A stretch of DNA of 64,000 bases from a virus (lineage: Duplodnaviria > Heunggongvirae > Uroviricota > Caudoviricetes): the IMG/VR virus record IMGVR_UViG_3300013137_000008. The stretch is one strand, 5' to 3'. The notes beneath the pieces were generated by a model, which did not search any database, was not told where the DNA came from, and worked only from the letters and a program-made list of their open reading frames with translations. Both the position numbers and the translations under genes were made by a program. Positions 25,185-60,605 of this stretch are shown here, one piece after another. Numbering within the stretch: position 1 is the stretch's first letter; every line of letters begins with the position of its first letter.

Positions 25185-25188
25185 TGTT

Positions 25189-33600: not shown

Positions 33601-34114
33601 CAATATCGTTGGTACTGGATATGGAGCACAACGTACATTCTTGACTAAACCTGTTGAACCTACGGTGTTGATAGTCACTAATTCCGCTCATTCTGCTTCA
33701 TTAACATGGACTAAAGGCGCAGGTGCGCTTAATACAGTTATAAAAGCTAAGATAGACGGTTATCCGTCAACTGTAGCTGATGGTACTCTGGTTTATAATG
33801 GAACAGCAGCGTCCTGCTCATTTACTCCACCTCTATCTACAAAGACATATTACTATAGAGCATGGTCATGGGCATCTAATTCTACTTGGAATGTCTACTC
33901 GGATTCTTATGCTGATTCAAGTTCACAAGGATTGATGTCAGACTTTGTGAAGATGATCGTCTCTGTAGTCTTTATGGCTGTAATGATTATGGCAATGCTG
34001 TTCTTACTTACGGCTACTCCTCTTGCTACCAATGCCTTCGGGATGATTTTGAGTTTGATAAGTTTTGCGTTCATGACCTTTATCGGTATCGCTATTATCA
34101 ATGCCCTGCTATAG
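30653..34114 (+). CDS. Giant secreted surface protein: signal peptide, Thr/Asn/Gly-rich beta-solenoid-like region, fibronectin-III-like repeats, C-terminal TM anchor
   Basis: Signal peptide ending VYAASD. Repeated LYYFR.YA.N..G.G......T.P..P and W.KG.GA...V.......P.......YNGT......GL.....YYFRAWSWAS modules. C-terminal hydrophobic helices. Confidence 0.8.
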   Translation: MRHRSLSILCLLIILFSIVSVFLVPPAPVYAASDLYWVHTLGGSGTGSWSNTSCWSATSGGAGGAGVPNSTVNVHFDNMSFNAVGQIVTVDATANCLSMDWTGASNTPTLAMGTNTINIYGNCTFIAVMAQTSSAGGTLDIKGVSTITTNGLSLTSGVTVGGATVTIQLADALTTSRDFTFTGASTSPTFQTNNNTMNVRTFQITGSGAGTKTLTLGNSTINIASNVAVGWDYAGSNLTLTANTAIINIAGAGNFNGGGITTYNTVNLNGTAHTVSGNNTFVNFYRNGTATKTDTLTLTSGSTQTVTGECGLKGNSATNRLLVQSSTLGSAATIDLSAGGKCKTATTTQNVDFMDITMSNGAANERDLSAITGLSGDCGGNTGITLTTSATQTSGTTDTWSTAGKWTSRVPLPQDDVNCSHNSTVDMPRIGRSITFSGTPTISLSNDINNYGSYTLVSGMTYTHNSWYNYFRGRDSYTLTSNGKSLYSVNISAPTGTYQVQDDFTCNTSGALSISSGTFDANNKNITAGRFLVNGSSTRTVTMGSGTWTANRATATDKWDASTTTGLTFNANTSTIVITNSSTNAENFYGGGLAYNNVTVQGAGNYALTISGNNTFNTFTVDRSVAAKTLTLTAGSNTTVTNMVCNKSDARYLTINSTAGTAYLTKAGGGQLGFTNLNLSNNTGNPVNTWYYSPESVIGANVVNWILDAPPTVTTDGASPIGMTTASTNGTITSLNFGGNANITGVDWGTVTGVYVRTQNTTGDFGIGTFYENLTGLIQGELYYFRMYAYNDDGRGDGVESTFLTKPVEPNTFTTTTLNSTAITCNWNKGLGALNTVVRYKLGGYPTDTTDGTLGYNGTLATYQQSGLVTDNVYFFRAWSWASEGTRQQYSDLYAGNYTVTSGIPTLTTIAASSVEETTATTTGIITYSYANYTVWGTQYGLSSGYGGWANNTGISTTVPYPFNDNLAVLSQGSLYYFRAYAVNIVGTGYGAQRTFLTKPVEPTVLIVTNSAHSASLTWTKGAGALNTVIKAKIDGYPSTVADGTLVYNGTAASCSFTPPLSTKTYYYRAWSWASNSTWNVYSDSYADSSSQGLMSDFVKMIVSVVFMAVMIMAMLFLLTATPLATNAFGMILSLISFAFMTFIGIAIINALL

Positions 34115-37400: not shown

Positions 37401-39133
37401 TGTTTGGTAATAACTGGACTGCCCAGACGTTTACTACCACTCAGGCACATTCAGTTCATCAAGTAGTCCTGTGGATGTCACGTACAACTACAGCAGCAGC
37501 AGGGTATGTTTACGTTTCAATACGTGAAGCGACTACAGATAACGTAACCTCTCCAGATTTGGGATTAGGATTATATGCAATAGCTTATGTGCCTGCAAAT
37601 GGTGGGCCATGTGAAGTATCACTTGAAAACGAAATACAATTAGATGCAAGTAAAAAATATGCGATTGTGGTCAGAGCACCATCAGCAGACGCTACTAACT
37701 ATGTCTCAATATGGGGAAGCGCAGCCGCTACCTCTATCTATGCAACTGGCAATGCTATCCGTTCTATCACTGGTGGGGCATCATGGGTAACTCAAGACTA
37801 TGATGTGTTCTTCTCTATAATTGGGCGTCCGCAACCTATCTATGGTAATATTCAAGCGGCTCAATCCTTTACTGTTGGTACAACTCCTCATACGGCGTAT
37901 AAGGTTCGGTTGATTTTGGGCAGGATAGGACAACCTGGAAATATATATGTATCTATCCGCAACTATTCAGGTGGAGTGATATCAAATGCTGATTTAGCAG
38001 TTGTAGCACTAAATGGAAATGCAATTACTCTTGATAAGGCAATGTATGATTGTGTACTTGTGCCAGAAAAAAGTTTGGAGGCAAGTAAACAATACGCCAT
38101 TATAGTTTCAGCACCATCAGGGGATAGGTATAACTATATCTTAATGTGTGCGGATGTTGGAGCGGGTTATGCAGATGGAACGGCTCTGTTGTCTTCTGAT
38201 AGTGGACTTACGTGGGTTGCACAGGCTTATGATTATAACTTTGAGGTATGGGGCAATGCCTGTCTTAATGTCTTGAACGCAAAGGTTTTCCGCAATTATT
38301 TAGTCTCAGGTGACTGGCTGATTGTATCGGAAACCCTGAACGTATCTCCACCATACTATGATGCTAACCAAGACCCGTCAACTCTTTTTATTCTGAGTTT
38401 CATGGGATTAGCAGGGACTACGTATGCTTCCACTCCCTGTGAATTGTGGGAAAAAGGGCCGATAGCTATTTATTTGAATCCTACTCAGGCATCAGCCCTG
38501 ACATGGGGTGGAAATTACAAGGTACGCCTTAGTAATATCGGAGGCACTATCTACAGTGAATACGGGTTGATTTCAACTGACTGGAGTTCTTCTTCATTGG
38601 TGTATTTAGATAACTGGGTACGGTTGGTAGCAAAGGATATGGAATCTTACCAAACAACCCGCACAGGTACTACTGTAACTTATTTAACGTATGTTGCTGA
38701 CAAGGGCTATGTTCTGAATCAGGATGGTGGGGCGATTTTTAACCAGGCTTGCCCACGTCTTTCTTATGTACGTCCTGACCTATTCCAAATTACCTCAAAT
38801 CAACCAGACATAACCACTACCCCAGTAACCACTACAAGCGTTGACTATCATGTTATTCTTGGTTCGTATCTATCTGGTCTGATAGACCAAGGGGCAGGGG
38901 CAATGGGTATTGGGGATGCAAAGGCGGCGGGGGGGATAATGATAGTCGCAATCTACGCAATCATCGCCTTTGGGACTGTGATAAAAGGATTTGCGTGGGC
39001 TGGCATGATTGCAGCCTTCCCAATAATCCTTTTGGGAATGTACTACGGTTTATTAGATATGGGCATGATTCTTGTCATGCTTGTTATTCTCGTATTCTTA
39101 TTCGTGAGAGAATTTTTTATGAAAGGTGGATAA
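34439..39133 (+). CDS. Giant secreted surface protein with multiple FN3-like domains and C-terminal multi-TM anchor
   Basis: GTG start with GAGGAG SD; signal peptide; FN3-like YYFRAW motifs; shared module VQEIVSRVGWASGNSMNIFFDDH; C-terminal TM helices. Confidence 0.8.
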   Translation: MRGFNLLVLLTLLLFLFPYQVIGDDGGYQLAVESLDKGEGYFYKQTATTPNPIVSNSYVIGQEVVEKRTENSKTTYLGKVGNKEKYALEVSMGPIHYKDNYNDPNEQWKDIDLTWENGKITKAPYELTVDGNSITVRDKKTNSIVALTLSEIGGKSIGKHSLEYLKGKAVAKDIALDTDLEITATNTNVQFSRILKTSAAAKEAKFGFSKVGGGISVRCVGEDSSVGENKNIKVESSIKDGVLTETVNDVGLAYPVKIDPSITVQLASANASCNVYWDTGFAWAYASGVYCYVGRTTFGTRERDGGGLLFQSVSIPQGSSISTAYINFTARLADIQFTTYSRLTGEDVDNARLFANLTDYQTRRGTAVGGASNIYLTSANVSWTMDGWTTVNATYQSPSIVTIVQEIVSRVGWASGNSMNIFFDDHESRSSSDNRVRRAWNFYDDSSKSPKLYIVYISSAIVSTLNASDVEETTATVGGNVTEMGGGNITSYGIQYGLSTSYGSWCNHTETKTAIFTWNCYLGTNTSSLTQGLLYYYRAWTYDNTYGYGYGSQLTFLTKPEAPTGFVCTTVNSTAISYVWVKGTGADYTYIRYKDGGYPANVADGIESYNGTGTSNTQSGLTDGHTYYFRGWSWVSNTTLTQYSDGYDGCFSTTYDPPIVTTTAASLVEETTATTGGNIVSSPFAITTWGVQYGTTSSYGSWANTSSNPGLPYAFSKNLTSLSKGTFYYFRAFAEHASGAGYGAQNTFLTKPDPPVLAVTALNASAVTLSWIVGDGADYTYIRYRTVSCPATIADGTLAGNISAPTASLIVSNLTTLQTYYFSAWSHSTGGATYQFSDTYDCESQQVPGLPTVTTNAPTGYGNDWASVSGTQTGGYPVSTLFGFQYGTTIGYGSWSNTTITVAGGSFSATISGLTPSSSYHYRAFAVNPYGVGYGADMTFSTAGTAILYENHQYGCNTTWSQVYDTDSTSISANWTSGTIASYSTQPVFGNNWTAQTFTTTQAHSVHQVVLWMSRTTTAAAGYVYVSIREATTDNVTSPDLGLGLYAIAYVPANGGPCEVSLENEIQLDASKKYAIVVRAPSADATNYVSIWGSAAATSIYATGNAIRSITGGASWVTQDYDVFFSIIGRPQPIYGNIQAAQSFTVGTTPHTAYKVRLILGRIGQPGNIYVSIRNYSGGVISNADLAVVALNGNAITLDKAMYDCVLVPEKSLEASKQYAIIVSAPSGDRYNYILMCADVGAGYADGTALLSSDSGLTWVAQAYDYNFEVWGNACLNVLNAKVFRNYLVSGDWLIVSETLNVSPPYYDANQDPSTLFILSFMGLAGTTYASTPCELWEKGPIAIYLNPTQASALTWGGNYKVRLSNIGGTIYSEYGLISTDWSSSSLVYLDNWVRLVAKDMESYQTTRTGTTVTYLTYVADKGYVLNQDGGAIFNQACPRLSYVRPDLFQITSNQPDITTTPVTTTSVDYHVILGSYLSGLIDQGAGAMGIGDAKAAGGIMIVAIYAIIAFGTVIKGFAWAGMIAAFPIILLGMYYGLLDMGMILVMLVILVFLFVREFFMKGG

Positions 39134-40715
39134 TTTGTTACATAAACGACTTATATTAGCCATCTTACTTGTGCTGGCGTGTTTGCCAGTAGTGGTTTCG
39201 TATACTCCTGTTCATGCCACTACCATGGCAAATAATACGGCAACTTCAAATTTCTCAATCCGTCAGAATCCCACTACTTCTGTATGGACTCAGGGTACTT
39301 TCAACTATGTGGGATGTGTGCGGGGTGACAATGACACTAGATACGGTATAGGAATACGTTTTTCCGCCGTTGCTATTCCACATGGGGCAACTATTGACTC
39401 TGCTCATTTAGTGGCAACTTCGGCGTCCTCTTTTACTCAGGATACAGTCAATTCAATGATTCAAGGTGAATATGTGGATTCTGCGGCAGCGTTTTCTACA
39501 GTGGCAAACTATCAAGGGCGTACCCGTACTCCAACGGCAGTTGCATGGAATGGAATAGAACATTGGACAATGGGTACTCAATATTCATCTCCCGATATCT
39601 CTGAAGTGATAGAGGAAATAGTGGGGAGGGCTGGTTGGGTTTCGGGTAATAACATGGTTTTGTTCTGGGATGACCATTTGGCTAACTCCTCTCAAGGTTC
39701 ATATACTCCACCGTGTGTACGTGGTGGGTCAAGTTATCTTCTGATGGTGGAATACACAGCGGCTACAACAGTCAGTCATGCAAATGTGACTACTAAAGAC
39801 GCTACTGACATTGGTAGCTCAACGGCAGTCCTAAACGCTTACGTAGATGAAGATGGTGGTGATACCAATGGTGTAGCTCTGCAATTTGGGTATGCTAACG
39901 CCACTCATGCTGCTAACTTTGCAGCGTATACACATTTTACAGCATGGTCTACTTCAAACTATACCACTGGTGAAGCATATAATTTAGCTGTCGGGTCATT
40001 AACGCCTTCAACTACTTATTACTTTAATACGCAGGGGCAAAACTCAGTTGGGTATACTTATGGTGTTGAGCAGACCTTCGTCACGCCTGCTTCATCCACG
40101 GTATTGACACCATCAAACTTTATCATTCTACCTTCAAGCACGTCTGTTGATTTGCAGTGGTCTAAACCTGCTGGATTCAGTGAAAGCCGCCTGTATTTCA
40201 AATCTGGCTCTATCCCGTCTTCTAACACTACGGTTGATCTTTTGTATAGTGGTGTAAATAACTATTACACTCATTCATCGCTTACATCGGGTACTACTTA
40301 CGGGTATTTGTTGTACGGGTATGAATCGGGAATATGGTCAGCATCGGCTTCAGGCATTATTACAACCAAGGGTACTTCCACTGGTACTGGATTTAATACA
40401 CCAACTGTCCCGACTAACTGGTTTATTGATACTGAGTATACAACTCAGAACACAACTTTTTATTATGACATAGTAAATAACCTTGCAGATTCGTTTTCAA
40501 TGCCAAGGAATACAGCATGGGCTACATGGGCACTTTGCCTTGCGATGTTCCTCGGGTTTTTGATTTGGAGTGCATCCAGAAGCATGGTTGCGACTACAGG
40601 AGCGGTATGTGTGGGTGTTATAATCGGAAGTTTGCAACATTTGATTCCAATGTATATGATGTTGCTTGTTTTGGTATTTGGGATTAGTATAATTGCAGTG
40701 AGGGAAAGAATTTGA
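39126..40715 (+). CDS. Secreted FN3-like protein with C-terminal TM anchors, homologous to modules of the upstream giant proteins
   Basis: Signal peptide; IEEIVGRAGWVSGNNMVLFWDDH module; 8-nt overlap with the upstream gene. Confidence 0.7.
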   Translation: MDNLLHKRLILAILLVLACLPVVVSYTPVHATTMANNTATSNFSIRQNPTTSVWTQGTFNYVGCVRGDNDTRYGIGIRFSAVAIPHGATIDSAHLVATSASSFTQDTVNSMIQGEYVDSAAAFSTVANYQGRTRTPTAVAWNGIEHWTMGTQYSSPDISEVIEEIVGRAGWVSGNNMVLFWDDHLANSSQGSYTPPCVRGGSSYLLMVEYTAATTVSHANVTTKDATDIGSSTAVLNAYVDEDGGDTNGVALQFGYANATHAANFAAYTHFTAWSTSNYTTGEAYNLAVGSLTPSTTYYFNTQGQNSVGYTYGVEQTFVTPASSTVLTPSNFIILPSSTSVDLQWSKPAGFSESRLYFKSGSIPSSNTTVDLLYSGVNNYYTHSSLTSGTTYGYLLYGYESGIWSASASGIITTKGTSTGTGFNTPTVPTNWFIDTEYTTQNTTFYYDIVNNLADSFSMPRNTAWATWALCLAMFLGFLIWSASRSMVATTGAVCVGVIIGSLQHLIPMYMMLLVLVFGISIIAVRERI

Positions 40716-41084: not shown

Positions 41085-42056
41085 ATGGGTAGGGGTTTAG
41101 GATGGTCAAAAGGGTTAACTAAGGAAACCAGTCCAAGTGTTGCTGCAAGGGCAGCTAAAATAATCGGCCATAAGACATGGAATGAAGGTCAAACTAAGTA
41201 TACTAATCCAAGTATCATGGCACAGGCGAAAAAGATGGCAGGAAGAACTAAAGAGACTGACCATGGCATAGCTATAAGGGTCTTAAAAATAACGGGTAGA
41301 ACTAAGTCAAATTATGAATATTTATTAGGAATGTCTAAAAAACGAGAAGGTTTAACCAAGGAGAGTACTCCTTGGTTAGCAAGAATGGGATGGAGTAAGG
41401 GGCAAACAAAGGATACTAATCCAAGTATTGCAAAGGCTACTATTAAACGACAAGGAAGAACTAAAGAGAATGATTTAGGAATGCTGTCGCAGTCAATTAA
41501 AATGACTGGTAGGACTAAAGAAACGCACGAAGGTATTCGTAGAGGCGTAGAGAAGAAGAAAGGAAGGACTAAGGAAAATCATAGTGGGGTTAGATCACAT
41601 GCCATTAAAATGGCTGGCAGAACTAAAGAAACGCATGATGGTGTTCGTAGGGGGGCAGAAAAGAGAAAGGGAAGGAATAAAGAGAACACACCTTATATGG
41701 CAACGATGGCAGTAAAGATTTCAGAATTATTTAAAGGTGATAAACATCCAAATTGGATTGATGGTAGATCATATTTGCTATATGGCAAAGATTTTACTCG
41801 AAGTCTACGGACGAAAATAAAAAAACGGGATGAGTACACTTGTCAATATTGCGGGATGTTGGAAGTTAATTATTGGCGAAAATTGGATGTACATCACATT
41901 GATTATGCTAAAACCAACTGTCCTGAATCCAATTTGATTACTCTTTGCCACACTTGCAATGTGCGTGTTAATCAAAATAGAGAGTTTTGGCAACGATTTT
42001 TCTCAGACAAGATATTGGTGAGGCAATTAAATGAAGGGAGTTTTATATATGGGTAG
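41085..42056 (+). CDS. HNH homing-endonuclease-like protein with N-terminal NUMOD3-like repeats
   Basis: Repeats GRTKET(H)xG(I/V)RRG; C-terminal HHIDYAKTNCPESNLITLCHTCNVRVNQNREFW, close paralog of the HNH region in 2719..3879; AAGGAG SD. Confidence 0.75.
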   Translation: MGRGLGWSKGLTKETSPSVAARAAKIIGHKTWNEGQTKYTNPSIMAQAKKMAGRTKETDHGIAIRVLKITGRTKSNYEYLLGMSKKREGLTKESTPWLARMGWSKGQTKDTNPSIAKATIKRQGRTKENDLGMLSQSIKMTGRTKETHEGIRRGVEKKKGRTKENHSGVRSHAIKMAGRTKETHDGVRRGAEKRKGRNKENTPYMATMAVKISELFKGDKHPNWIDGRSYLLYGKDFTRSLRTKIKKRDEYTCQYCGMLEVNYWRKLDVHHIDYAKTNCPESNLITLCHTCNVRVNQNREFWQRFFSDKILVRQLNEGSFIYG

Positions 42057-42065: not shown

Positions 42066-42293
42066 ATGCTAATGCGACTTTTTCTTGGCTTGACATTGAT
42101 TTTGTGTTTTCTTGTTATTTATCCGAGCATGATGTCCATATTGACTGACAATGTGTCAGGTTTACTTACCTTAATCCCTGCTGGTTCGATGTCACCGTTA
42201 GAGCAGAGCATTTGGGGATTATTCCCTCTTGCCTTTTTGGTACTTGGCGTGGGCGGGTTTATCTGGCTGATTGTGAGAGATCGAGAGCGATAG
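42066..42293 (+). CDS. Small membrane protein
   Basis: Three hydrophobic segments. Confidence 0.4.
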   Translation: MLMRLFLGLTLILCFLVIYPSMMSILTDNVSGLLTLIPAGSMSPLEQSIWGLFPLAFLVLGVGGFIWLIVRDRER

Positions 42294-42320: not shown

Positions 42321-42749
42321 ATGAGTAAAGAGATGTATGTAACAGATAAAAAGGGCAATCGGTATGAAATCAAGTCCCATATTGACTATGGGGCGATTAT
42401 TATGACGTCTGTTTTACCTGAGTTAAAACCCATAGATAGTTTGTGTATTGCAAGAGATGGACTAATCTTCGGGAAATGGCGAGACCCTGATTATCGAAAC
42501 TCCGCTGCTATAGATGATTGTAGGATGTTGAAGTGGGAAGAATTTTTAAGGCAGGGGTGGTTACTGCCCGAAGTAGATAAGATTTACGGTTTTGTCCACC
42601 CGAATAATGTCGCTTCGATTAAATGGGTATTGTCAAGGGGTGGGTATCTAGATGGAAAACATGAGATAGATGGAGTAATATACGATAAGTATGTTGTACC
42701 TATAGATGCCATGGTTAAGATGGCTGAGAAAATTAAATGTATGGTTTGA
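42321..42749 (+). CDS. Hypothetical protein
   Basis: 142-aa ORF, coupled to the giant gene. Confidence 0.45.
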   Translation: MSKEMYVTDKKGNRYEIKSHIDYGAIIMTSVLPELKPIDSLCIARDGLIFGKWRDPDYRNSAAIDDCRMLKWEEFLRQGWLLPEVDKIYGFVHPNNVASIKWVLSRGGYLDGKHEIDGVIYDKYVVPIDAMVKMAEKIKCMV

Positions 42750-45700
42750 ATGATGAACCTTTATACTTTCGTGGAAGACGATATTGTATAGGGAAATTAT
42801 GCTTTACTGGAGCAGTCGGGGCAAGTGGCCCTGATTTAATGCTATATACGCCACCTTCAATCTATTCAACTCCCTCTTCAACCCCGTCAGCACCTGCTGC
42901 TCCCGCTGAACCCGTATCCTCGCCAGTGCCTACGCCTCCGTCTGATTCTTTAGACTCTACTTTCCGTAGGACTCAGCAGGTATCTGGTGGAGCTAGTGGT
43001 GATGTTTACAGGGAATCTTCAGAATCAGTCGCAAGGATTGGGGCAGGGATGGGTAAAGGTGATGTGGGACAGTCAAAACAGCTTCTTTCAAAGGAAGAAG
43101 AAGCACGACAGATTCAACGACTTGAGAATTTGCCTCATACTTGGGCAGAAATGGTATCTCAAGACCCATATGTTTTGCTGAGACCTGATGCGGAAGCAAG
43201 GTTGGCTGTCTTACCTGAAAGTGAGAGACCGAAGATTACTTATCCTGTAAACGATAGTGAATTAGCACTTCTAAAACAGCAGGCGGCTAAGTACGGGACT
43301 TCCGAAGATGAAAAAATCGTTCAGACTGTAATGAACATTATGCAGTCGGATTGGAGTCCATCTGCTACAATGCCATCAGATTTACTCAATCTTCCTAAGA
43401 CGTACGGTGAACTTGCTGTTATAAAACTGGGAATCTTAAACAATAGTCCTAACAATACGTGGACTTTGTCAACGGGGCAAAAGGTGACTCTCCCTAAATC
43501 TGAATATGTAAATCAGGCTATCTTGGACAATACAACTTACACATACAGGCAAATGGGTGAATCTGAGATACCAAGGTCAAAAACTGAGCCATCGACAGGA
43601 GTGTTCTCACCTAACCCCAATGCTTTTGGGTTATGGACGCCTCTTTCTGATGAAGCTCGATATGACAGCAGAATAGTAGACGCTCTCGATAAATCCAAAT
43701 ATCAGAGCGCACTTAACATCGTAGATAAGCTCTCAGAACCTTGGGGTGCAAGGCCAAGTGGTGCTGGTGGAGGTGGTGGTGGAGCAGTGGGTAGCTCTGG
43801 GACAATGGGTAGTGGTGGAATAACTATACCTGGGGTTACGGTTAATGTCGCTCCAACTACGGGCGTGGTTACAGTTTCATCACAAGGGCAAGAAAGAGTT
43901 ACGGGTGTTGCTGATACAGGCACAGCGTTCCTTACAACCCAATCAATGAAAGAAGCAGCAAAACAGGCCGGATATGGACTATTAAGCGCAGAAGATGTAA
44001 AAAATGTCTATGATAAGGCAGAACAATTACAGAAATGGCAGGCTGAACTTCCAACGGCTAAGAACAAAGTAGAAATCCAACGGAATATAGATGAAGCGCA
44101 ATCATATCTTTCTAAGGTAGTAAAAGCGAATACTCCACTTACGCCTACACTACTCGTAGATGCAGTTGAATCGTCCATTCGAAATAAAAGCAATCCTGCT
44201 CAAGAATTGGCAAATGATGGACTTACAAGGGCTGCTGAACAGGCTGGTGGACGTGAAATAAAAGATGGTGTGTGGGAAACCAGAACTTCTACAGCAAAAT
44301 ATATGGATGCCCTTCAAGAGTTTTTAAAGGGTGTACAGGGCATAGAGAGGGAAGCCCCATTCAAACAGAAAGTTTTCTCGGATGCTCAACAGGTAGCACA
44401 GGACAATGACGAGGCTAACGCTGTGGATAAAGGCAATAGGCCTACAGACCCTGTAAAAATAATGGAATCATGGAGATACACAAAAGAAGCAGCCCAACTT
44501 CGTGACAGCAAGGGCAATAACTTAACGGGTGAAGCACTTTCAAGAGTAATTGAGGGTTGGGGCAAACAAAGGACAGCCGAAGGCGGCTCACCAATAACCT
44601 ATGTTCAATATGTCCCTGTTGGTCAGACTATAGAAAATGGAGTAGTTAAATTAGTCTATGATTGGCGTTCAGTAGATGAAAATAACAAACCATACGAATA
44701 TGGTGTAATACAGCGTCCTATCTGGTGGGATATGAGCACTGGCAAAATCTTGGTTACAAGCAAGGATTGGCGTCCTGACCGCAAACTTCAGAACTGGCAG
44801 ACTTTTGATGAGTTTGCTGAGGCAGTTGCAAGGGGCGAAATAGCGACTCCAAACAGAATACTTGATGCAAAAGCAAAGAAACTGGAGAGTATTCTTAAAA
44901 GTGCTGAATGGAATAAATATCTTAATGATTGGAATGGTTTTCTTAAGAACCCTGTAAAAGGTGATGAGCCAATAACGGATATTCCAGTAAGTGATTTGAA
45001 CATTGCTGACTTCGGATATAGATATGGTGCGTATTATGTAGATGATAAAGGGATTGTTGATTATAAAGGAATTGTTAAGGCATCTGAAAGGTACGAGGAT
45101 TCTCTTAATATAGATCAACCGTTAGATTGGGTATACATTTTGAGTGGGTCGTCCTATAAACCTGAGCCTGTACCAGTGACTGAGGCACAACCAGAGCGAT
45201 ATGTTTCTACGGGTACTACAGAGACTAAATTTGAACCAAGTGAGAAGATAGAGACTAAGCCATCAGGAGTAGTTTCTGTTGATATTGCTCCAAAAGTGTT
45301 TGAAACATCAGCATTAACACAAGAATCGGATGGACGTATATATAAGGCCAAAATAGTTATAACAGTAACAAAAGATAAGATAACTGAGACAAGATATGAT
45401 GATAAGGGCAACATAGATATCGGCGGGTCTTATGAGTCTCCTCTTGCTGCGGATACTAACAGTATTCCTTTCCAAAGCCTTGTAAGAACTATAGGGTTGG
45501 ATAGTGCTAATAAAGTTGTCAGTGATATGCAGCAAGCTGCCACTACCCCGTCTGTAATAACTCAAGAGGTGAGGGCTACAACTATTCCAATGTTGGTTGG
45601 GGAAGGTCAAGGCAGAAAGGTTGTAGAGCAAAGGGGTGACAAGGTAAGAGCAATAGTTTTTGATGCTAATGGTATTATACTATTTGATAATACGTACTCA

Positions 45701-48700
45701 GCGGATAGCGATCAAGGTAAATTTAATATTGGGTTCGCTAAAGAGCAAGCACGTTTAGGATTGGCAAAGGTTAATATTACCAGTGTCCAAGTTACTGCTC
45801 CTACTAAGACAGAACGTGTTGAAACAGAAAATGTTGAACCGTCAAGTTGGTTTGCAGGTGGATTACCAAAAGTTTTGGCATTGCCTTATCTTGAAGGGGA
45901 GATATCAGGGGATAGCTCTATTAATATCCATGATGTTGGAATGGATATAGTAAATGGTAAAACTATAATAAGTTGGAAAACAGATAAACCTACTCTTGGT
46001 ATTGTTCAAGGTTGTTATGATGGTGGGTGTGGTAATTGGCGTGATACTGAATTGTCTACTGACCATAAAATTGAGGTGGATATCTCAGAGTATTCTCCTG
46101 AACAATTGGCTACGTTGCATTTAACTGCAATAACCTCAACCACAGGTGATGGGTTAAAGGATACGAGTATACAATGGATGCCTATAAACAAGAACGTTAC
46201 CTTATCGGCAGAAACAGTTATATCATCTATTCCTGATATGTCTATGGGTAGTGTTAAGAGTGTAATTACAACTAAAGAAGAACCAAAATTCAAAGGTAGG
46301 GAACTGACGTCAGATGAGAATACAGCCAAAGGAATACTTTGGATTAAGGTTGATGACAACGGTATTGCTACTGCCATGGATATTAACCGCACTGTAATTT
46401 ACACTGTTTATCCTGATGGTAGGATGGAAGGTCATGATTTACATGGTGGTAACAGGGTATGTACAAACACTGAGTGTTCTATCAAACATGCCAAGGCGAT
46501 TGAGGATATCAAGAGTGCAGTAAAATCCGCTGGCATGGATATCAACAATTATAAACCATCTGTAGTAGTTGCTGCTATTCCAACTATTTCAAAGGTTGAA
46601 GGTGTAAAACCAACTGAGTTTGTAATTACTCCAACTGCTATAAAGGCAGGTATAACACCAAAAGATATAGTAAACAACATGGTAACACAAGCCTATGTTA
46701 CTGATAACAAGGATTGGAGAACTAAAGTATTAGACATTGTAAACAAGTATACCGATAAGGGTATTCTCAATATCGAAAAAGCATACCAGGAAATCACAAG
46801 GGCTAAACTTCCGATTGCTGCTCCAATCATACAACCCAAGATAGTTTCAACTCCTGATGAAACCCGCCGTTATTTCTACTGGGGCGTAACTCTTAAACCT
46901 ACCATGGATGAAACGTTATTTGAAGTTGCCAAACGTGAAATGACCACGGATTATAATGAAGCTAAGAGGCGTCAATCTCTTGCTGAGTATGAGCCTTCAG
47001 ATGAAGCAGGCAAGAAACTCAAAGCCACCTTAGCCCCACAAGATCAATTTACTGACTATGATCGTAAAGTTATAGAGAATTGGGAAAGTCCCAAATTGTT
47101 CAAATCATCCACTCAATGGATAGGTCAAGACCCCATGAACTATTATGGACTTGCTATTGAAATGGGTAAACAACAGGTAATAGTAAATAAAGCTAAACAG
47201 GTAGATGCTTTGCGTAAGGCTGGTAAACTGGATGAAATTCCGCCTATGCCAACCCCTTATACTTCATTGGCGACTCGCCTTGAACCTATCATCTCTACCA
47301 CAAAATCAGAATATGAAAAATCCCTTGCTATTATTAATGCTAACAAACTTGATTCCTCAAAACCTGTTCCTACAGAAAGAGATTACACTATTGTCTCCAC
47401 AGTAGAAAAATACCGTGGTGATGATAAACTCCGTACCCCTAACTTCTACTCTGTCTATGAAGCACTTAAAGGGGGGCCATGGGCAATTGGGGTGGAGGGA
47501 GAGGTAGGTGGAGGGTTGAAACTTAGAGTTGGGCAAGTTACTAGTGAACGTCCTGAAGTGCCTATTAGTGAGTATTATATACCTCAACCAATTGTAGAGA
47601 CTTCAAGACAACCAATGTCTAATTATTTGGATGTTTTGTTTGGAAGAACAACTCCACAGGGTTGGGCGGGTAGATATGAGATGAGGGCTAAACCTGAAAT
47701 TTCTATGAGGGCGTCAGAATTAATAAAGTTAGGCCCATTTGAAGGTCAGGTACATTTGGTAAAACCTAAAATACCTGAACTGAGCCTTGAGGAGAAATGG
47801 ATTGGCATGATTCCAGTTTTAACAATGGATAGTGTTAAAACTTGGCTTCCATCAGAAACCAATAAGGAAGCCTATACCAAACAAAAAGCATATTTTGAAT
47901 CACAAGGATACGTATTACCTCTGGGAAGTATCTTTGGTGGGTATGATAATCAAGGTAAGGCAACTTTTGTTAGCAAGGTAGACTTTGCTAAATTATCACC
48001 TGATAATAAGAATGTATTGCTTACTGAGGGAATAAGTGGGTTGAATGCCAAGATGTCGGTAGACTCTTGGAATGGGGGAATAGTATGGGGTGTAATACAG
48101 GAAAAGTATGGCAGTAATCCATTTAAGTGGGCGCAAGATTTAAGAGATACAGGTGTTAAACCTGATGAGATTCGTGGGTTACTTGCTACTGTTAATTGGA
48201 AAGAACCAGATACCATAGATAATGTTATGAAAACTATCCCTAAAGAGAATGAGGTTACTGATAGTGAATGGGCAAAAATGTGGTTTAATATATTGGCACC
48301 AGGCGACCAGTTTGTTCCTAATAGAGTTGAGTTTATTGAATATGCCACAAAACATCCTGAAGACCCAAGGGCAAATGTTTTGTTCAAAGGTGTTCCATCG
48401 GTTTTGCCATTAACTTATGAGGCGGCAAGTGATATAGATCAAAAAGCACCTTGGTCTGACCAAGTGATGCAGATTAAACTGGCAGAGGTAAAAAGCCTTT
48501 ATAAATATGGAGAAAAGGTACAAGAGGGGATTGGAGCAGAGGGCAATAGGGTAATTCAATCCGTATTAGCTCCAGGAGCTTGGGCAATGGCAGGAGCCAA
48601 TGGTGGTTTTTGGGATTCTGAGTTTAGAGTAGGGGCAGAAAAGAATATCTCTCCAATTACGTTTTATGTAGACCCTAATACTGGTGAAAAAAAGGCTGAA

Positions 48701-51700
48701 TGGTTAATGGATGGCAAACCAATAGATACAACTTTTGAAACTAACGCTATAAAAACCATTTCAGATTTTGCGCCTAGGGAAAAATTTGCGGGTGGAGTAA
48801 AAGGGATAGACGAGTGGTATCAAAAAGTTAGACCTGATTGGTATGATTATACTGGAAGTTTTAATCCTGATTATGCAATAGGAGTAGTAAAGGGATCGGT
48901 TTGGGTTGTTAGCGAATTATGGCAAATGGTTAGTGGTATGTTAGGGGTGTTACCGTTAACTATCTTAAAGGTTGGGAGAGAAGCTACTGCTGGTGATATT
49001 AATCATGCGGCAGAAACCATTGTAACAAGTGGTGGTGGGATGGTATTAATGCCAGGGGCATGGTTAGGTGAAAAAGTATCTGATATAGGAAGAGGTAATA
49101 TACCCAAATTTGTTGGGGAATCAGTAGGGATGGGGCTTAGTTTAGTATTTGCACCAGAAGCTTTGGCAAAAGGGTTAAATAGAGGGTTTAATGTATCTCA
49201 ATTAGCTATCAAAGCGGCAAAAGGTGATATTATTTCTGCTCGTGCAATAGCCAATTATCCAGAAGTAGTAGCAATTAGAACACCTCAATCATTTAGAGTA
49301 TTGGAAACTGAACTGTCGGCTATCTTTTCTGATAAAGTCAAGGTAGATAAGATATTGGAGAAATCTAATCCGATTGAACAGCGAAAAGAGATACGTGCAT
49401 TACTTAATCCAGAAACTGCAAAAGTATTTGATGCAATCGTTGAATTGGTAGATTTAGTAGGTGGATATACAGTTAACCCATCAAGTATTCGCAAAGTTAA
49501 CTTCGATGATATATTAAGAGTACCAATTGGAGCAGACAAAGCAATTAAATCAGTGCTGGATAATTATAAGGGAAAATTTGAAATACATGGTAGCTTTGCT
49601 GATTGGGTACAGATGAAAAATGTTCCTGATGCCTATAGACCAAAGGATTTGGACGCATTCTTTAATGATGATGTTTCTATTAATACGGTTGCAAAGAAAA
49701 TTTCAGATGATATAAATAAGGAACTAGGTAAGAATATAACAAGAGCAGAGGGAGCACAAATTAAAACGCTTAAAGATGGTAATTGGGATAAAATGCTTGA
49801 TATTCATCATAAGAGCGAATTTAGTTCTGTTGCTCCGCTAGGTTTTGAGCAAATAAGGAATAATGTTGTTGTTGATGGAATAGAATTTGAACCACTTGGC
49901 AATCAGTTATGGCATCGCGGTTGGGAATTAATGAACCCAGGAGTTGGTACACAACGTGGTTTAATGGGGCCAGTTGCCGCAGCTAAGGAATGGAGATTAA
50001 AAGATCAATATAGGTTTGAAGTATTGGTTAGGAGTATTATTAATGATTTGAAAACCAATGGAGAGGTTGAATTGGCTAATCAAGTATCAACTAATCTTAA
50101 TACATTCTTAACCTCACCACGGGGAGAAGCATTTAAATGGTCTCCTACAGAGATGGCTGACATATCTAGTGATTTCTTGGAACTCTTTAAGGAATTACAA
50201 GAAGCTTCAATATTGAGCGGTAAAAAGATGGTAGCTTTTGATGAGAAAGGCATACTTGTCAGAGAACCAACTCCGTCAGAGCAGGTAATTCCTGGTACGC
50301 TTTATCATGTTACCTTTGATATACGTCCTTATTTAGAGGCGCAGAAGAGGGGTAAACCAGTTACTATTGGTCAGATAATGGATGAAACTGGTAAATTAAC
50401 AAAGGCAGAAGGCCAGTTTTTATTTACATCACCACAGGCAGCATTTGATTTTATACAAAGATTAGGTGAAGTTGGCGAGAATGCTGGAGTGATTGCGATA
50501 CGTACTACTCTAAATGAGGTTGGATTGGGAAGAGATATAACTCCTGCGTTTAGGATAGAGCAATTTACTGAACCTAAAGAGTTTTCAATTGAAATAGGTG
50601 GTAAAAAGTTTGTCCCAGGTGGTGATGTCATTGTTGGGCGTACTTTAAATGAGTGGTTAGTCCAACCTGGAACCAAGATATATATGACTGGAGAGAAAAT
50701 TGGGACATACCACCCAAGAAGTCTAAAGGGGTATGATATTCATTGGGCACAGACCGCAGGGGCGAGGGATTTGGGGTTAAAGATGCCGAATAATGCCCAG
50801 ATTCATGCCATGAATTTAATGGCAATGAAAGAAACATTCAGGGATTTATTGAATCCTACTTTAGTCAAACAGATAAAAGTTATTAGTGGGCCAACTCCTG
50901 CTATTGGCGAAGGTAGTATTATTAGTTTTAGAAGGGAGCCAATATATTTTAAATCTGTCAATGAGCTAAGTGGCGATTTAAAATTAGTAAGTGACTTATT
51001 GAAAAAGAATAAGACATATAATAAGGCTACTGAAGAGATAGTACGTAGGGTTTGTGAGGAATATGGGTTTGATTATCATGAAGGTTTGGGTACAGAAAAG
51101 TTTGGAACAGGGTTACAAGGGATGTTTTCGCCATTGGAAGGCAAGATTACTTTAACGGATCAATTTATGCAAGACCCAAGGAGCCTAATAACAATTATCC
51201 ACGAATTAACACATAACAAAATGGATAAGTTAATTGATAGTAATCCTAGATATAGGAAAGGAATGGATAATTTACTCAAGGATGTCAGTGTGTATATTAA
51301 GAGTCGTTATGGTGTATCAGTACCGTTAGAAGTAGTAGATACATTTGTACACGAAATAGCCACTATTAATCATGTTAAGAGATTAAGTGGGTTCAATGAT
51401 ATAGATTATCATCTATATAATATTAAGGTTTTGGATGATGTTATCAATAAAATGACTAATGGAACAAGAGTTTTAAGCCCAGATGATATGTTAGCCTTGG
51501 TCAATATGGCAGAAAGTTACGAGAGAACATTACCTATCAAACATGGCATAAATTATGAATATCTACATAAGGCAATGGTAAATGATGCGAAAAATAAGAG
51601 ATCACAGGTGTTATCTCAAGCAGAGGTTAATGAAACCATAGCAATTGGTAAAGAAATGAGGGGTGAATATAGTTCACCGTTGAGCCTTATTCCATCTTTA

Positions 51701-52675
51701 ATAAAAGAGAGAATAAGTAGTACTGAATCTAAATTAAGGAATGATACTGATAGTATTGCTATTAAGCTTTCTAAAGAGGTTGAAAATAGTAAAACACAAA
51801 TAGAAGCAGATAATAAATTAAACCAGATAGTTGATGATGAGTTGGTTAAGTTTAAGAGAGAGATTGGAGAAGAGAACTTTGATAATATTGCAAAGAGTAG
51901 GGATTTTGAAAGGACTTATTACGTAAATCTTGATAAGGTATTTAAAAGTTCAATTAAACCACGTACGATAACTGTTAGTGAGACTCCATCCAAATCTAGT
52001 ATTATCCCTAGTGTGACTTCAGTTCCAGTAAGTGAGGTTGTTACTACAAAGATGGTTGGTAGTGAGCCAATCATTGAAACTATGCCTATTAGCGAAACTA
52101 TTGCTGAGAAAACAATTACAGAAGGAATAACTACTCCCATTACTACGTCAAAGACAGTTCCAGTAACTACAGGAACAATTACACCTACAATTCCAATAAC
52201 TACGCCTATTACGCCAATAATAACCACTACAACTAAAATTACGACTATTCCTATAACTACACCTGTTGCTATCCCAGTTATAACTACAAAAACAGCTCCA
52301 TCTCAAATAATAAAATTACAAAAAGTAAGGCAGATACTTAAAAAGGGTGATAAAGAAGGTTTGATAGCTTGGAAACAAGGTTGGAATTATCGTGTACTTT
52401 TTGCTCCGTGGTCACAAAATGATGTTTTGAATACTCGTAAACCAGTTGAAGGTGTGGAATATCATGAGGGAGTAAGGTCAGCCTATGATTCCATAGTTCG
52501 TAGGGGTGGGTATATCCCACCAGTAATTACTCGTGATATGGGCATCTACACGATTCAGATCAGGACACCAAAAGACCAGCGTAAACCAGAACTTGTGTTT
52601 AGGCGAGATGTGAAGGATGTTTACAAGGGTAAGAAGAAGCCTGTAGCCAAAATGCCACGTATCATACGGTTCTAA
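42737..52675 (+). CDS. Giant (3312 aa) multidomain protein with HExxH zincin-like metallopeptidase motif, Gly-rich and Thr/Pro/Ile-rich low-complexity tracts; polyvalent-protein-like
   Basis: Uninterrupted 9.9-kb ORF; no signal peptide; IIHELTHNKMD motif; SGAGGGGGGAVGSSG tract; C-terminal PITTPITPIITTTTKITTIPITTP tract; basic tail. Confidence 0.8.
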   Translation: MYGLNDEPLYFRGRRYCIGKLCFTGAVGASGPDLMLYTPPSIYSTPSSTPSAPAAPAEPVSSPVPTPPSDSLDSTFRRTQQVSGGASGDVYRESSESVARIGAGMGKGDVGQSKQLLSKEEEARQIQRLENLPHTWAEMVSQDPYVLLRPDAEARLAVLPESERPKITYPVNDSELALLKQQAAKYGTSEDEKIVQTVMNIMQSDWSPSATMPSDLLNLPKTYGELAVIKLGILNNSPNNTWTLSTGQKVTLPKSEYVNQAILDNTTYTYRQMGESEIPRSKTEPSTGVFSPNPNAFGLWTPLSDEARYDSRIVDALDKSKYQSALNIVDKLSEPWGARPSGAGGGGGGAVGSSGTMGSGGITIPGVTVNVAPTTGVVTVSSQGQERVTGVADTGTAFLTTQSMKEAAKQAGYGLLSAEDVKNVYDKAEQLQKWQAELPTAKNKVEIQRNIDEAQSYLSKVVKANTPLTPTLLVDAVESSIRNKSNPAQELANDGLTRAAEQAGGREIKDGVWETRTSTAKYMDALQEFLKGVQGIEREAPFKQKVFSDAQQVAQDNDEANAVDKGNRPTDPVKIMESWRYTKEAAQLRDSKGNNLTGEALSRVIEGWGKQRTAEGGSPITYVQYVPVGQTIENGVVKLVYDWRSVDENNKPYEYGVIQRPIWWDMSTGKILVTSKDWRPDRKLQNWQTFDEFAEAVARGEIATPNRILDAKAKKLESILKSAEWNKYLNDWNGFLKNPVKGDEPITDIPVSDLNIADFGYRYGAYYVDDKGIVDYKGIVKASERYEDSLNIDQPLDWVYILSGSSYKPEPVPVTEAQPERYVSTGTTETKFEPSEKIETKPSGVVSVDIAPKVFETSALTQESDGRIYKAKIVITVTKDKITETRYDDKGNIDIGGSYESPLAADTNSIPFQSLVRTIGLDSANKVVSDMQQAATTPSVITQEVRATTIPMLVGEGQGRKVVEQRGDKVRAIVFDANGIILFDNTYSADSDQGKFNIGFAKEQARLGLAKVNITSVQVTAPTKTERVETENVEPSSWFAGGLPKVLALPYLEGEISGDSSINIHDVGMDIVNGKTIISWKTDKPTLGIVQGCYDGGCGNWRDTELSTDHKIEVDISEYSPEQLATLHLTAITSTTGDGLKDTSIQWMPINKNVTLSAETVISSIPDMSMGSVKSVITTKEEPKFKGRELTSDENTAKGILWIKVDDNGIATAMDINRTVIYTVYPDGRMEGHDLHGGNRVCTNTECSIKHAKAIEDIKSAVKSAGMDINNYKPSVVVAAIPTISKVEGVKPTEFVITPTAIKAGITPKDIVNNMVTQAYVTDNKDWRTKVLDIVNKYTDKGILNIEKAYQEITRAKLPIAAPIIQPKIVSTPDETRRYFYWGVTLKPTMDETLFEVAKREMTTDYNEAKRRQSLAEYEPSDEAGKKLKATLAPQDQFTDYDRKVIENWESPKLFKSSTQWIGQDPMNYYGLAIEMGKQQVIVNKAKQVDALRKAGKLDEIPPMPTPYTSLATRLEPIISTTKSEYEKSLAIINANKLDSSKPVPTERDYTIVSTVEKYRGDDKLRTPNFYSVYEALKGGPWAIGVEGEVGGGLKLRVGQVTSERPEVPISEYYIPQPIVETSRQPMSNYLDVLFGRTTPQGWAGRYEMRAKPEISMRASELIKLGPFEGQVHLVKPKIPELSLEEKWIGMIPVLTMDSVKTWLPSETNKEAYTKQKAYFESQGYVLPLGSIFGGYDNQGKATFVSKVDFAKLSPDNKNVLLTEGISGLNAKMSVDSWNGGIVWGVIQEKYGSNPFKWAQDLRDTGVKPDEIRGLLATVNWKEPDTIDNVMKTIPKENEVTDSEWAKMWFNILAPGDQFVPNRVEFIEYATKHPEDPRANVLFKGVPSVLPLTYEAASDIDQKAPWSDQVMQIKLAEVKSLYKYGEKVQEGIGAEGNRVIQSVLAPGAWAMAGANGGFWDSEFRVGAEKNISPITFYVDPNTGEKKAEWLMDGKPIDTTFETNAIKTISDFAPREKFAGGVKGIDEWYQKVRPDWYDYTGSFNPDYAIGVVKGSVWVVSELWQMVSGMLGVLPLTILKVGREATAGDINHAAETIVTSGGGMVLMPGAWLGEKVSDIGRGNIPKFVGESVGMGLSLVFAPEALAKGLNRGFNVSQLAIKAAKGDIISARAIANYPEVVAIRTPQSFRVLETELSAIFSDKVKVDKILEKSNPIEQRKEIRALLNPETAKVFDAIVELVDLVGGYTVNPSSIRKVNFDDILRVPIGADKAIKSVLDNYKGKFEIHGSFADWVQMKNVPDAYRPKDLDAFFNDDVSINTVAKKISDDINKELGKNITRAEGAQIKTLKDGNWDKMLDIHHKSEFSSVAPLGFEQIRNNVVVDGIEFEPLGNQLWHRGWELMNPGVGTQRGLMGPVAAAKEWRLKDQYRFEVLVRSIINDLKTNGEVELANQVSTNLNTFLTSPRGEAFKWSPTEMADISSDFLELFKELQEASILSGKKMVAFDEKGILVREPTPSEQVIPGTLYHVTFDIRPYLEAQKRGKPVTIGQIMDETGKLTKAEGQFLFTSPQAAFDFIQRLGEVGENAGVIAIRTTLNEVGLGRDITPAFRIEQFTEPKEFSIEIGGKKFVPGGDVIVGRTLNEWLVQPGTKIYMTGEKIGTYHPRSLKGYDIHWAQTAGARDLGLKMPNNAQIHAMNLMAMKETFRDLLNPTLVKQIKVISGPTPAIGEGSIISFRREPIYFKSVNELSGDLKLVSDLLKKNKTYNKATEEIVRRVCEEYGFDYHEGLGTEKFGTGLQGMFSPLEGKITLTDQFMQDPRSLITIIHELTHNKMDKLIDSNPRYRKGMDNLLKDVSVYIKSRYGVSVPLEVVDTFVHEIATINHVKRLSGFNDIDYHLYNIKVLDDVINKMTNGTRVLSPDDMLALVNMAESYERTLPIKHGINYEYLHKAMVNDAKNKRSQVLSQAEVNETIAIGKEMRGEYSSPLSLIPSLIKERISSTESKLRNDTDSIAIKLSKEVENSKTQIEADNKLNQIVDDELVKFKREIGEENFDNIAKSRDFERTYYVNLDKVFKSSIKPRTITVSETPSKSSIIPSVTSVPVSEVVTTKMVGSEPIIETMPISETIAEKTITEGITTPITTSKTVPVTTGTITPTIPITTPITPIITTTTKITTIPITTPVAIPVITTKTAPSQIIKLQKVRQILKKGDKEGLIAWKQGWNYRVLFAPWSQNDVLNTRKPVEGVEYHEGVRSAYDSIVRRGGYIPPVITRDMGIYTIQIRTPKDQRKPELVFRRDVKDVYKGKKKPVAKMPRIIRF

Positions 52676-52714
52676 TATAGACAAATGTATCCCAATATGC
52701 TATAATGGGGCATA

Positions 52715-53263
52715 ATGAAAGATAAACTTGTAATCATTTGTGTTAGTGCCGTTCTAATTGTTGGTGGATGTGTAGCAGGATTTTTTGTGGGGATGGATGG
52801 TGGTAAAAAAGAAGCACTACAGGAATGTGGTGACAGAATTTATGCTTCTTATGAGCAGGGATATTCCATGGGTTATGGCAACGGTAAGGAATACGTAGTA
52901 ACCCATATAGATGAATATGTGACAATCCCAAAGGCTGTGGCGTATGATGAGGTGGTGGAGTTTTTAGAAGAGGATAAAACAGATTCTAGTGTTTATACCA
53001 ATGAATACAATTGTATATCTTTTTCAGCTACACTTAAAGATAGGGCTACTATGTATGGGATAAAATGTGCGGTTGTATCTATGGACTTGAGCGGCAAATA
53101 TGAAGATACGGCTCACGCAATAAACGCCTTTGATACTACAGATAAAGGAATAGTTTACTTCGATCCACAAACAGATGGAGAAAGATTTGGAATATATGAG
53201 GGTGGTACGTATTACTTATTGGGAACAACCTACAAAATCACCAAGGTAGACATTATATGGTAA
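52715..53263 (+). CDS. Membrane-anchored or secreted hypothetical protein
   Basis: N-terminal hydrophobic segment VIICVSAVLIVGGCVAGFFVG. Confidence 0.45.
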   Translation: MKDKLVIICVSAVLIVGGCVAGFFVGMDGGKKEALQECGDRIYASYEQGYSMGYGNGKEYVVTHIDEYVTIPKAVAYDEVVEFLEEDKTDSSVYTNEYNCISFSATLKDRATMYGIKCAVVSMDLSGKYEDTAHAINAFDTTDKGIVYFDPQTDGERFGIYEGGTYYLLGTTYKITKVDIIW

Positions 53264-54469: not shown

Positions 54470-54592
54470 TTGAGTTCATCTATCGTAATAATATCATTCT
54501 TATAGTAGTCTGTCAAGTACTTTTAGATATAAATTGTTATCCACAAAAAAATGAAAGCGTCAGCTTTCTACTGTAAGTAGCATTTACTGATA

Positions 54593-59460: not shown

Positions 59461-59462
59461 AT

Positions 59463-60603: not shown

Positions 60604-60605
60604 CA

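Follow-up and report, generated by a model that had tools for sequence, protein, structure and literature searches.

Polyvalent proteins are regarded as the first weapons that a mobile element fires into a new host, and to our knowledge almost none have been studied outside Proteobacteria and Firmicutes. Encoded by phages, prophages or conjugative elements, they join in a single polypeptide 2 to 15 domains that are unrelated and for the most part enzymatic; module shuffling is their hallmark, and linkage to MuF or portal proteins, or to ArdC-N and type IV secretion systems (T4SS), is frequent, not obligatory (Iyer et al. 2017, PMC5512222). Phage T4 Alt, as summarised in PMC5512222, is a packaged and injected ADP-ribosyltransferase (ART) of the R-S-E clade that sets a precedent for DNA-coupled delivery, and the N4 virion RNA polymerase gp50 is a packaged, injected protein of 3500 residues that bears a zincin-like metallopeptidase (MPTase). 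The IME1 elements of Dehalococcoides, which are small and encode a Zot/pI-like ATPase, have been proposed to represent a budding or filamentous virus lineage (bioRxiv 10.64898/2026.09.15.751708). The gene considered here, which encodes a giant protein, is located in a 64,000-nucleotide stretch of the virus record IMGVR_UViG_3300013137_000008; this whole stretch is called the window, and residue numbers are those of the giant protein. The giant is probably a polyvalent-type effector of a large, undescribed virus-like element, because enzyme folds and an accessory cassette are combined in it and its family, carried by virus-like elements, shuffles modules. The kind of protein is known; the family, with its own conserved core and C-terminal domain, is new.

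The family of the giant, not annotated before, comprises at least 44 metagenomic proteins. An exhaustive HMMER search with residues 1900-3090 retrieved 44 relatives (E down to 8e-130), all from metagenomes or metagenome-assembled genomes (MAGs) and nearly all giant themselves (1100-5257 residues); those that were looked up are named 'hypothetical protein' at most. Realignment of the giant to its relatives gives a common architecture consisting of a variable N-terminus, a Gly/Ala-rich segment, two modules designated A and B, a helical stretch with the motif Y-[VI]-[VI]-N-L, a Thr/Pro-rich linker and a C-terminal domain. Modules A and B are more than 2000 residues apart in P0010, module A is duplicated in P0008, and a calcineurin-like phosphoesterase (Metallophos, Pfam E=3e-12) is inserted between A and B in P0005 (residues 1679-1894). 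Paired HxT motifs suggestive of a 2H phosphoesterase were seen, by eye only, in P0008 and P0010.

Members of this family are absent from the deposited phage genomes searched by tblastn: residues 314-3312 of the giant had no match in 50,697 GenBank phage records or 72,556 PLSDB plasmids, nor did the relatives P0023 and P0002 have any in GenBank phages. The giant matched nothing in Pfam, PHROGs or NCBIfam and no PDB sequence (phmmer), megablast of window positions 30-54 kb against GenBank phages gave no match, and an exact look-up of the window's own proteins gave no record. The giant, P0001 and P0008 also served as queries for pattern-based locus searches in contigs of viral, genome and metagenome origin, which were equally blank. 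Word-indexed protein searches with residues 2151-3312 and 376-1300, which score only the 8000 candidates with the most common words, came back empty despite the existing relatives, and a profile search of the same database with the family alignment A1 found one fragment, P0045.

The conserved core of the family is a nucleotidyltransferase (NTase) with an intact catalytic signature, followed by an ART-fold domain with an invariant Glu. Neither was recognised by Pfam in any of 11 members. An AlphaFold2 model of residues 2180-2765, built from an 11-sequence alignment, has predicted local distance difference test (pLDDT) scores of ~90 for module A and of 70-85 for module B. The Pol-beta alpha/beta fold was found in module A, with a viral poly(A) polymerase as the best structural match, and the Pol-beta signature (hG[GS]...[DE]h[DE]...third carboxylate) is complete: G2285-S2286, D2304-L-D2306 and D2355. 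Across the family G2285 is conserved in 39 of 39 sequences, S2286 in 38 of 39, D2304 and D2306 each in 40 of 40, and D2355 as Asp or Glu in 33 of 40. Module B, as modelled, has the ART fold; its fold matches are ADP-ribosyltransferases (HopU1 and SidE, 8.1; CPILE-a, 7.7; C3 and SpvB, 7.5; ExoS, 7.2), with further matches to Certhrax, Vis, ART2.2 and VIP2. E2639 is invariant (34/34), S2565 (33/35) and R2606 (31/34) are nearly so, the aromatic Y2523 is also conserved, and the first position of the [EQ]xE motif is Leu in the giant.

The HExxH motif reported in the initial annotation is indeed present, exactly once, as HELTH; only about 0.016 would be expected by chance at the composition of the giant, because His is rare in it. 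Six family members possess one such motif each, within a cassette whose location varies: in the giant, P0001 and P0005 it follows module B, in P0010 and P0012 it separates A from B, and in P0008 it lies a long way upstream of the core. These cassettes align over ~230 residues at 16-23% identity, and the H, E and H of the motif are three of the four invariant columns, a pattern that indicates that the motif is under selection. A third zinc ligand, the check proposed in the same annotation, has a candidate in Glu2873, 51 residues past the first His and conserved in the homologous modules: a Glu 45-75 residues past HExxH is aligned in five of the six by MAFFT and in all six by local alignment. 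The closest relative, the fragment P0045 on a 1.8-kb JGI contig, lacks residues ~2745-2999 entirely; by BLASTP it is 62% identical to the giant over residues 2548-2789 and 54% identical over residues 3000-3312, and its best tblastx segment reaches 77%. Since the module is missing from P0045 and variously placed elsewhere, the cassette is one that moves and is gained and lost. A foreign-composition origin of the cassette (G+C content 0.33, versus 0.39 for the gene) was rejected, as G+C at third codon positions is not distinct.

The AlphaFold2 model of the cassette (pLDDT 75.8, predicted template modelling score 0.69) has the order helix, two short strands, HExxH helix (71-91), helix, and a helix bearing E2873 (120-140). 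The MPTase of polyvalent proteins is described with the same element order, its two ligand helices being separated by an insert that is variable (PMC5512222). In the zincin core fold a mixed beta-sheet packs against these two helices; fold searches with the model did not retrieve zincins, and in zincin profile searches all matches were below threshold: DUF6782 (0.017), MPTase-PolyVal (0.032) and Peptidase_M78 (0.039) were each matched by one relative and none by the window's own module, and the minigluzincin proabylysin (PDB 4jiu) was aligned over the strand and HExxH helix at E=0.17. These sub-threshold matches are weak, and all of them point toward zincins. The pattern g-x-I-t-L ... hh-HEL-x-H, in which the HExxH helix comes after a strand, is what aligns to proabylysin; minigluzincins of this kind and M48/M56-type zincins have a downstream Glu as third ligand, for which the giant offers its candidate. 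The cassette very probably contains a gluzincin-type metal site under selection, its membership of the zincins being putative, and likely has a peptidase fold, also putatively assigned.

The giant gene is a single uninterrupted frame from its ATG, and its product, synthesised in the cytoplasm, has no hydrophobic N-terminal segment: in a Kyte-Doolittle scan no 19-residue window reaches 1.5, and the N-terminus scores 0.99. The length and the lack of a signal peptide given in the initial annotation are therefore correct, and composition counts agree with the Gly-rich and Thr/Pro/Ile-rich linkers described there (Gly 18% of residues 301-400; Thr 30%, Ile 21% and Pro 12% of residues 3101-3200). NxS/T sequons occur at 0.48 per 100 residues, versus 1.6-3.1 in three secreted membrane proteins encoded upstream. 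No internal repeats were detected within the N-terminal ~2040 residues, and homologues of this region are essentially none besides weak matches at residues 462-530 and 1720-1900. Of the three most hydrophobic stretches in the giant, two (residues 2061-2079, 1.46; residues 2125-2143, 1.25) lie in the Gly/Ala-rich segment that follows, which is possibly a membrane-interacting element. The C-terminal W-[KR]-Q-G domain, ~110 residues long, has no match among PDB sequences.

In comparison with described polyvalent proteins (PMC5512222), the giant is similar in that unrelated enzymatic modules are joined in one giant polypeptide of a mobile element and shuffled between relatives, in the components involved (zincin-like MPTase, ART, Pol-beta NTase and 2H phosphoesterase are all listed for polyvalent proteins), and in the freedom of the peptidase module to be N-terminal, in the middle or C-terminal. 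It differs in that none of their Pfam models reaches threshold in its family, and no MuF, portal, ArdC-N, SNF2 or methylase module was found there. Whereas the typical polyvalent ART is of the H-Y-D clade, that of the giant resembles R-S-E-clade toxins; its NTase is large rather than of the 'minimal' firmicute type; the family possesses a C-terminal W-[KR]-Q-G domain of its own, preceded by a Thr/Pro-rich tether; and the gene adjoins genes for membrane-anchored proteins and, in relatives, a Zot-like ATPase, instead of tail or T4SS genes. T4 Alt is also a virus-encoded ART-fold enzyme of the R-S-E structural neighbourhood, but it is a single-domain protein of ~70 kDa without detected sequence similarity to the giant (no match in PHROGs), and the beta-1 Arg is not conserved across the giant family. 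N4 gp50 is comparable in size and likewise has one HExxH module in its C-terminal third, but no RNA polymerase-like region was found in the giant (PHROGs, Pfam), whereas N4-like virion RNA polymerases have a T7-like single-subunit core, and its neighbours are not N4-like. A crAss-like or N4-like virion RNA polymerase was rejected as an identity for the giant for want of supporting matches (PHROGs, Pfam, and tblastn against the phage records, which include N4-like phages).

The genes around the giant encode mostly membrane proteins (Table 1). From 30.6 kb onward the plus strand encodes three large anchored proteins, small membrane proteins, an HNH endonuclease, a 142-residue protein, the giant and a 182-residue protein. 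The three large anchored proteins possess signal peptides, fn3-like repeats (VEETTAT...YYFRAW), up to 3.1 sequons per 100 residues and C-terminal anchors; they resemble archaeal-style surface glycoproteins, and their homologues flank the giant gene in related contigs. Both neighbours mentioned in the initial annotation were recovered: the HNH gene, which matches Pfam and PHROG HNH models and is probably a homing-endonuclease insertion into the operon, and the small coupled upstream gene, whose frame overlaps the giant start by 13 nucleotides. Homologues of the 182-residue protein adjoin P0045 (L081, 1672-1833) and occur at 60% identity in a Dehalococcoidales MAG (L002, 879-1418), where the gene adjoins a copy of the window's insertion sequence (IS) transposase.

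Promoter-like and terminator-like sequences were noticed downstream of the giant. A sigma-70-like promoter site (11/12) directly follows its stop codon at 52678-52706, and a divergent promoter-like pair is located at 54488-54516 (11/12) and 54913-54942 (12/12), all three being consensus matches only; a terminator-like hairpin with a 10-bp stem (54726-54749) lies between the members of the pair. The hairpin and divergent sites suggest that a new transcription unit, which contains genes for TelA, ThiF, JAB and two SPFH proteins, starts at ~54.5-54.9 kb; taken together, the promoter-like sites and hairpin hint that the small genes on the minus strand at 53755-54469 are surrounded by a regulatory switch region.

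Table 1. Features of the giant protein and its surroundings in the window, and Zot-like ATPase genes of related contigs (positions on the contig named).
Feature	Position	Strand	Basis or remark
Giant ORF (open reading frame)	42737..52675	+	3312 codons, ATG start, one unbroken frame, no signal peptide
N-terminal ~2040 residues	42737..48856	+	lineage-specific; low complexity at residues 40-75 (Ser/Pro-rich) and 339-362 (Gly-rich)
Gly/Ala-rich, mildly hydrophobic segment, residues 2041-2165	48857..49231	+	conserved in relatives
Module A, Pol-beta-type NTase, residues ~2190-2470	49304..50146	+	G2285-S2286, D2304-x-D2306, D2355
Module B, ART-fold domain, residues ~2480-2744	50174..50968	+	Y2523, R2530, S2565, R2606, E2639
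Zincin-like cassette, residues ~2745-2999 (~255 residues)	50969..51733	+	indel relative to P0045; six-member alignment
HELTH (HExxH), residues 2822-2826	51200..51214	+	invariant in 6/6 modules
Glu2873 (VHEIAT), candidate third zinc ligand	51353..51355	+	predicted helix 120-140 of the model
Helical segment ending in family-conserved Y-[VI]-[VI]-N-L (YYVNL, residues 3061-3065)	51734..51961	+	by eye in sequences
Thr/Ile/Pro-rich linker, residues ~3076-3190	51962..52306	+	composition; equivalent linker in relatives
Conserved C-terminal domain, residues ~3191-3312	52307..52672	+	W3212, Q3214 and G3215 invariant
1153-residue secreted, membrane-anchored, sequon-rich fn3-repeat protein	30653..34114	+	first gene of the plus-strand block
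1564-residue secreted, membrane-anchored protein	34439..39133	+	C-terminal 450 residues conserved upstream of the giant in L082-L084
529-residue type-I membrane protein	39126..40715	+	signal peptide, fn3-like repeats, C-terminal transmembrane anchor; co-occurs with the giant in 5 related contigs
HNH endonuclease, free-standing, NUMOD3-like repeats	41085..42056	+	Pfam HNH 22.1 bits (cut-off 21.4); PHROG HNH E=1e-12
75-residue small membrane protein	42066..42293	+	sequence
142-residue protein	42321..42749	+	13-nucleotide overlap with the giant start; homologue directly upstream of P0001 (E=1.8e-7)
182-residue N-terminally anchored protein	52715..53263	+	directly downstream of the giant
IS-type DDE transposase with SWIM zinc finger	15443..16693	-	inserted in the replication-side block
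Zot-like ATPase	L085 21997-22749; L088 23123-23863; L089 16969-17718		Pfam
Zot-like ATPase	L082 21253-22308		hidden Markov model and BLAST, E=9e-18 and 1e-11
Zot-like ATPase	L084 25580-26548; L083 28214-28805		inferred by homology to the L082 protein

The surroundings of the giant gene were compared in seven related contigs of 43-118 kb. Contigs of the family include JGI 3300056968 Ga0566177_0000008 (117.7 kb), ENA ERZ27247793 k141_141303 (88 kb) and GCA_041643255.1 JBGGGX010000051.1 (77 kb). Three of them (L082-L084) have the same order as the window: a large surface protein (with DUF2341 matches in two), an anchored fn3-type protein of ~620 residues, small genes and the giant, so arranged that the 1564-, 529- and 142-residue proteins of the window have homologues at corresponding positions. 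Near these giant genes are also found DUF4379 proteins, NUMOD3 and LAGLIDADG endonucleases and a DNA methylase. The giant gene of L085, L088 and L089 is preceded by genes of queuosine type (PTPS, radical SAM, GTP cyclohydrolase I) and by a fusion of DNA polymerase A with UDG; L085 also encodes RNR and ThyA. Downstream of the giant gene, at a distance of a few kb, six of the seven contigs encode a Zot/pI-like P-loop ATPase; the remaining one (L086) has no such gene in the 10 kb downstream, and the window none within its 64 kb. A protein of 333 residues encoded downstream of the giant in L084 has matches (E=6e-17) to PHROGs labelled 'tail spike' and 'virion structural protein'. The virus group to which the giant family belongs may have particles that are not tailed. 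With its anchored glycoprotein-like proteins, Zot-like ATPase and probable Dehalococcoidia host, this gene context is unlike that of a conventional tailed phage or conjugative element.

If the giant is a polyvalent-type effector, it would be made late, along with its membrane-anchored operon partners, and would be incorporated into the particle, possibly by way of its tethered C-terminal domain. It would enter the next host with the DNA, its hydrophobic segment possibly aiding passage through the membrane; once inside, the NTase and the ART-fold domain may modify host proteins or nucleic acids, and the zincin-like module would then cut the giant into working pieces or cleave a host target. Such actual delivery with the DNA is a more tentative proposition than the effector reading that contains it, falling somewhat short of an even chance.

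The initial annotation had already proposed a candidate injected polyvalent protein with an HExxH zincin motif. What stands of this are the several enzyme-type domains, the virus-like mobile element and the family-wide shuffling of modules; the zincin turned out to be an accessory cassette, missing from P0045, in a protein whose core is the NTase and the ART-fold domain, and no linkage to MuF, portal, tail or T4SS was found. No T4SS genes were seen in the window or in the contigs of relatives. Several observations weigh against a polyvalent-type effector. Searches by Pfam or PHROGs detected no MuF, portal fusion or ArdC-N in the giant or in four relatives, nor did the Pfam lists of the relatives' neighbours contain any, and near the family members examined no gene could be recognised as coding for a capsid, portal, terminase or tail protein. 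Incorporation of the giant into particles and its delivery are matters that we infer. About 2000 of its 3312 residues have no assigned fold or homologue. An hhalign comparison of the cassette with the MPTase region of the N4 virion RNA polymerase aligned only 13 columns, those of the HExxH helix, with a probability of 30%. The catalytic triad of R-S-E ARTs comprises an Arg on strand 1, Ser-x-Ser on strand 2 and [EQ]xE on strand 5. The canonical strand-1 (beta-1) Arg, R2530 in the giant, is present in only 11 of 34 members, which makes the clade and chemistry of module B uncertain.

The main rival explanation is that the giant acts only inside the infected cell, as a viral enzyme hub that is never packaged and that works on host or viral RNA and proteins or counters NAD+/nucleotide-based defence. 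The failure to detect a packaging handle (MuF, portal) fits this idea, as does the location of the gene in the second subfamily, where it comes directly after a block of genes for DNA polymerase and nucleotide metabolism. However, the gene shares a co-directional block with genes for secreted membrane-anchored proteins both in the window and in L082-L084, and in the window a strand switch sets it apart from the replication genes; a tethered C-terminal domain and a hydrophobic segment would be hard to explain in a soluble enzyme, and giant size combined with module shuffling is typical of delivered polyvalent proteins (PMC5512222). An intracellular hub is considered unlikely, though less so than the two other alternatives.

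That hydrophobic Gly-rich segment, together with the size of the giant and its place after small coupled genes, also calls to mind tape-measure and ejection proteins, and the giant might be a structural component (tape-measure-like, or part of an internal core or ejectosome that serves as a conduit for DNA) with secondary or inactive enzyme-like domains. Tape-measure proteins are mostly helical rulers whose length is proportional to that of the tail and whose genes lie between those for tail chaperones and the distal tail. An approximately five-fold variation of length within the family (1100-5257 residues) is unfit for a length ruler, near-invariant catalytic residues (38-40 of 39-40 in the NTase, 34 of 34 for the ART Glu) argue for active enzymes, globular enzyme domains are present, no PHROG tail, tape-measure or chaperone match was obtained, and ejectosome matches were not significant; a structural role is accordingly judged quite improbable. 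Least credible, with hardly any weight left to it, is the view that the giant belongs to a cellular genome and is exported, like a polymorphic toxin or a surface adhesin, for competition between bacteria. Polymorphic toxins, too, contain ART, NTase and zincin domains (PMC3482391), and the adjoining genes encode surface proteins; but the giant possesses neither a signal peptide nor a known trafficking domain, its sequon density is low compared with that of its secreted neighbours, its variable N-terminus and conserved C-terminus are the reverse of the polymorphic toxin arrangement, and the context is virus-like in all eight loci examined. A polyvalent-type effector remains the preferred reading of the giant.

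The remainder of the window has a virus-like gene set, as do the relatives, in agreement with the mobile-element context envisaged in the initial annotation. Genes of the first 30 kb are on the minus strand, and a strand switch separates these replication genes from the block of the giant. They encode SSB, a RusA-like resolvase, DnaB helicase, a nucleoside deoxyribosyltransferase, an HNH/NUMOD3 endonuclease, a DnaJ-like protein and several PHROGs of unknown function, with nearest relatives among deposited phages only ~30-36% identical. No tRNAs and no Rfam matches were found in the window. The IS transposase inserted in this block has copies that are 88-90% identical in Dehalococcoidia MAGs, and dozens at 64-79% in other Dehalococcoidales and Chloroflexota genomes; these copies point to a member of the Dehalococcoidia (Chloroflexota) as the probable host. 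An archaeal virus or Borg origin, hinted at by the Thr/Pro linkers, the sequon-rich anchored proteins and the strand switch, was rejected because DnaB, SSB and RusA are of bacterial type, tandem repeats do not pervade the window and it is Dehalococcoidia that have the IS copies.

Several other features of the window were observed. Two free-standing HNH endonucleases have NUMOD3-type repeats (2719-3879, minus strand; 41085-42056, plus strand), a high homing-endonuclease load as in large lytic phages, and the related contigs also possess LAGLIDADG and NUMOD3 genes. A DUF4379 treble-clef zinc-finger protein with three repeats (28885-29646, minus strand; E=2e-53) is encoded in the strand-switch region and has a 35%-identical counterpart at the equivalent place in L083 (572-1636). 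Within the minus-strand ORF 24210-25256, which matches phrog_15773 and weakly a Pfam antifreeze-type beta-roll, a 24-nucleotide unit is repeated 18.9 times in tandem with 94% identity (24661-25113), encoding an eight-residue repeat. The plus-strand cluster 56495-63867 encodes TelA (E=2e-37), a DnaJ-type zinc-finger protein, a ThiF-family E1-like enzyme, a JAB deubiquitinase-like protein and two SPFH/Band-7 proteins, a ubiquitin-like conjugation set together with membrane-stress and scaffold genes; none of these genes has a BLASTP-level homologue in L082-L084.

The elements that bear the giant share with IME1, as far as the description in the preprint goes, a host group that is probably the same and a Zot/pI-like ATPase with small hydrophobic or membrane proteins in the absence of recognisable tailed-phage hallmarks; they differ in having at least 53-118 kb, DnaB or DNA polymerase A replication modules and giant proteins. 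IME1, although much smaller, is helpful as a precedent for viruses of unconventional type among such hosts. A broader scenario, rather doubtful when all its parts are taken jointly, is that the giant family marks an undescribed lineage of double-stranded DNA viruses of ~53-118 kb that infect Dehalococcoidia and other Chloroflexota, which are without peptidoglycan. These viruses would be non-tailed and assembled at the membrane by means of the Zot/pI-like ATPase and heavily glycosylated type-I membrane proteins, and the giant would be an internal cargo tethered by its W-[KR]-Q-G domain, delivered upon membrane fusion or penetration, that reprograms the host through nucleotidylylation and ADP-ribosylation.

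The fragment P0045, being without the cassette, offers a testable case of module gain and loss. The giant family may serve as a marker gene for a virus group, and its members are candidate host-takeover enzymes in organohalide-respiring and subsurface Chloroflexota.

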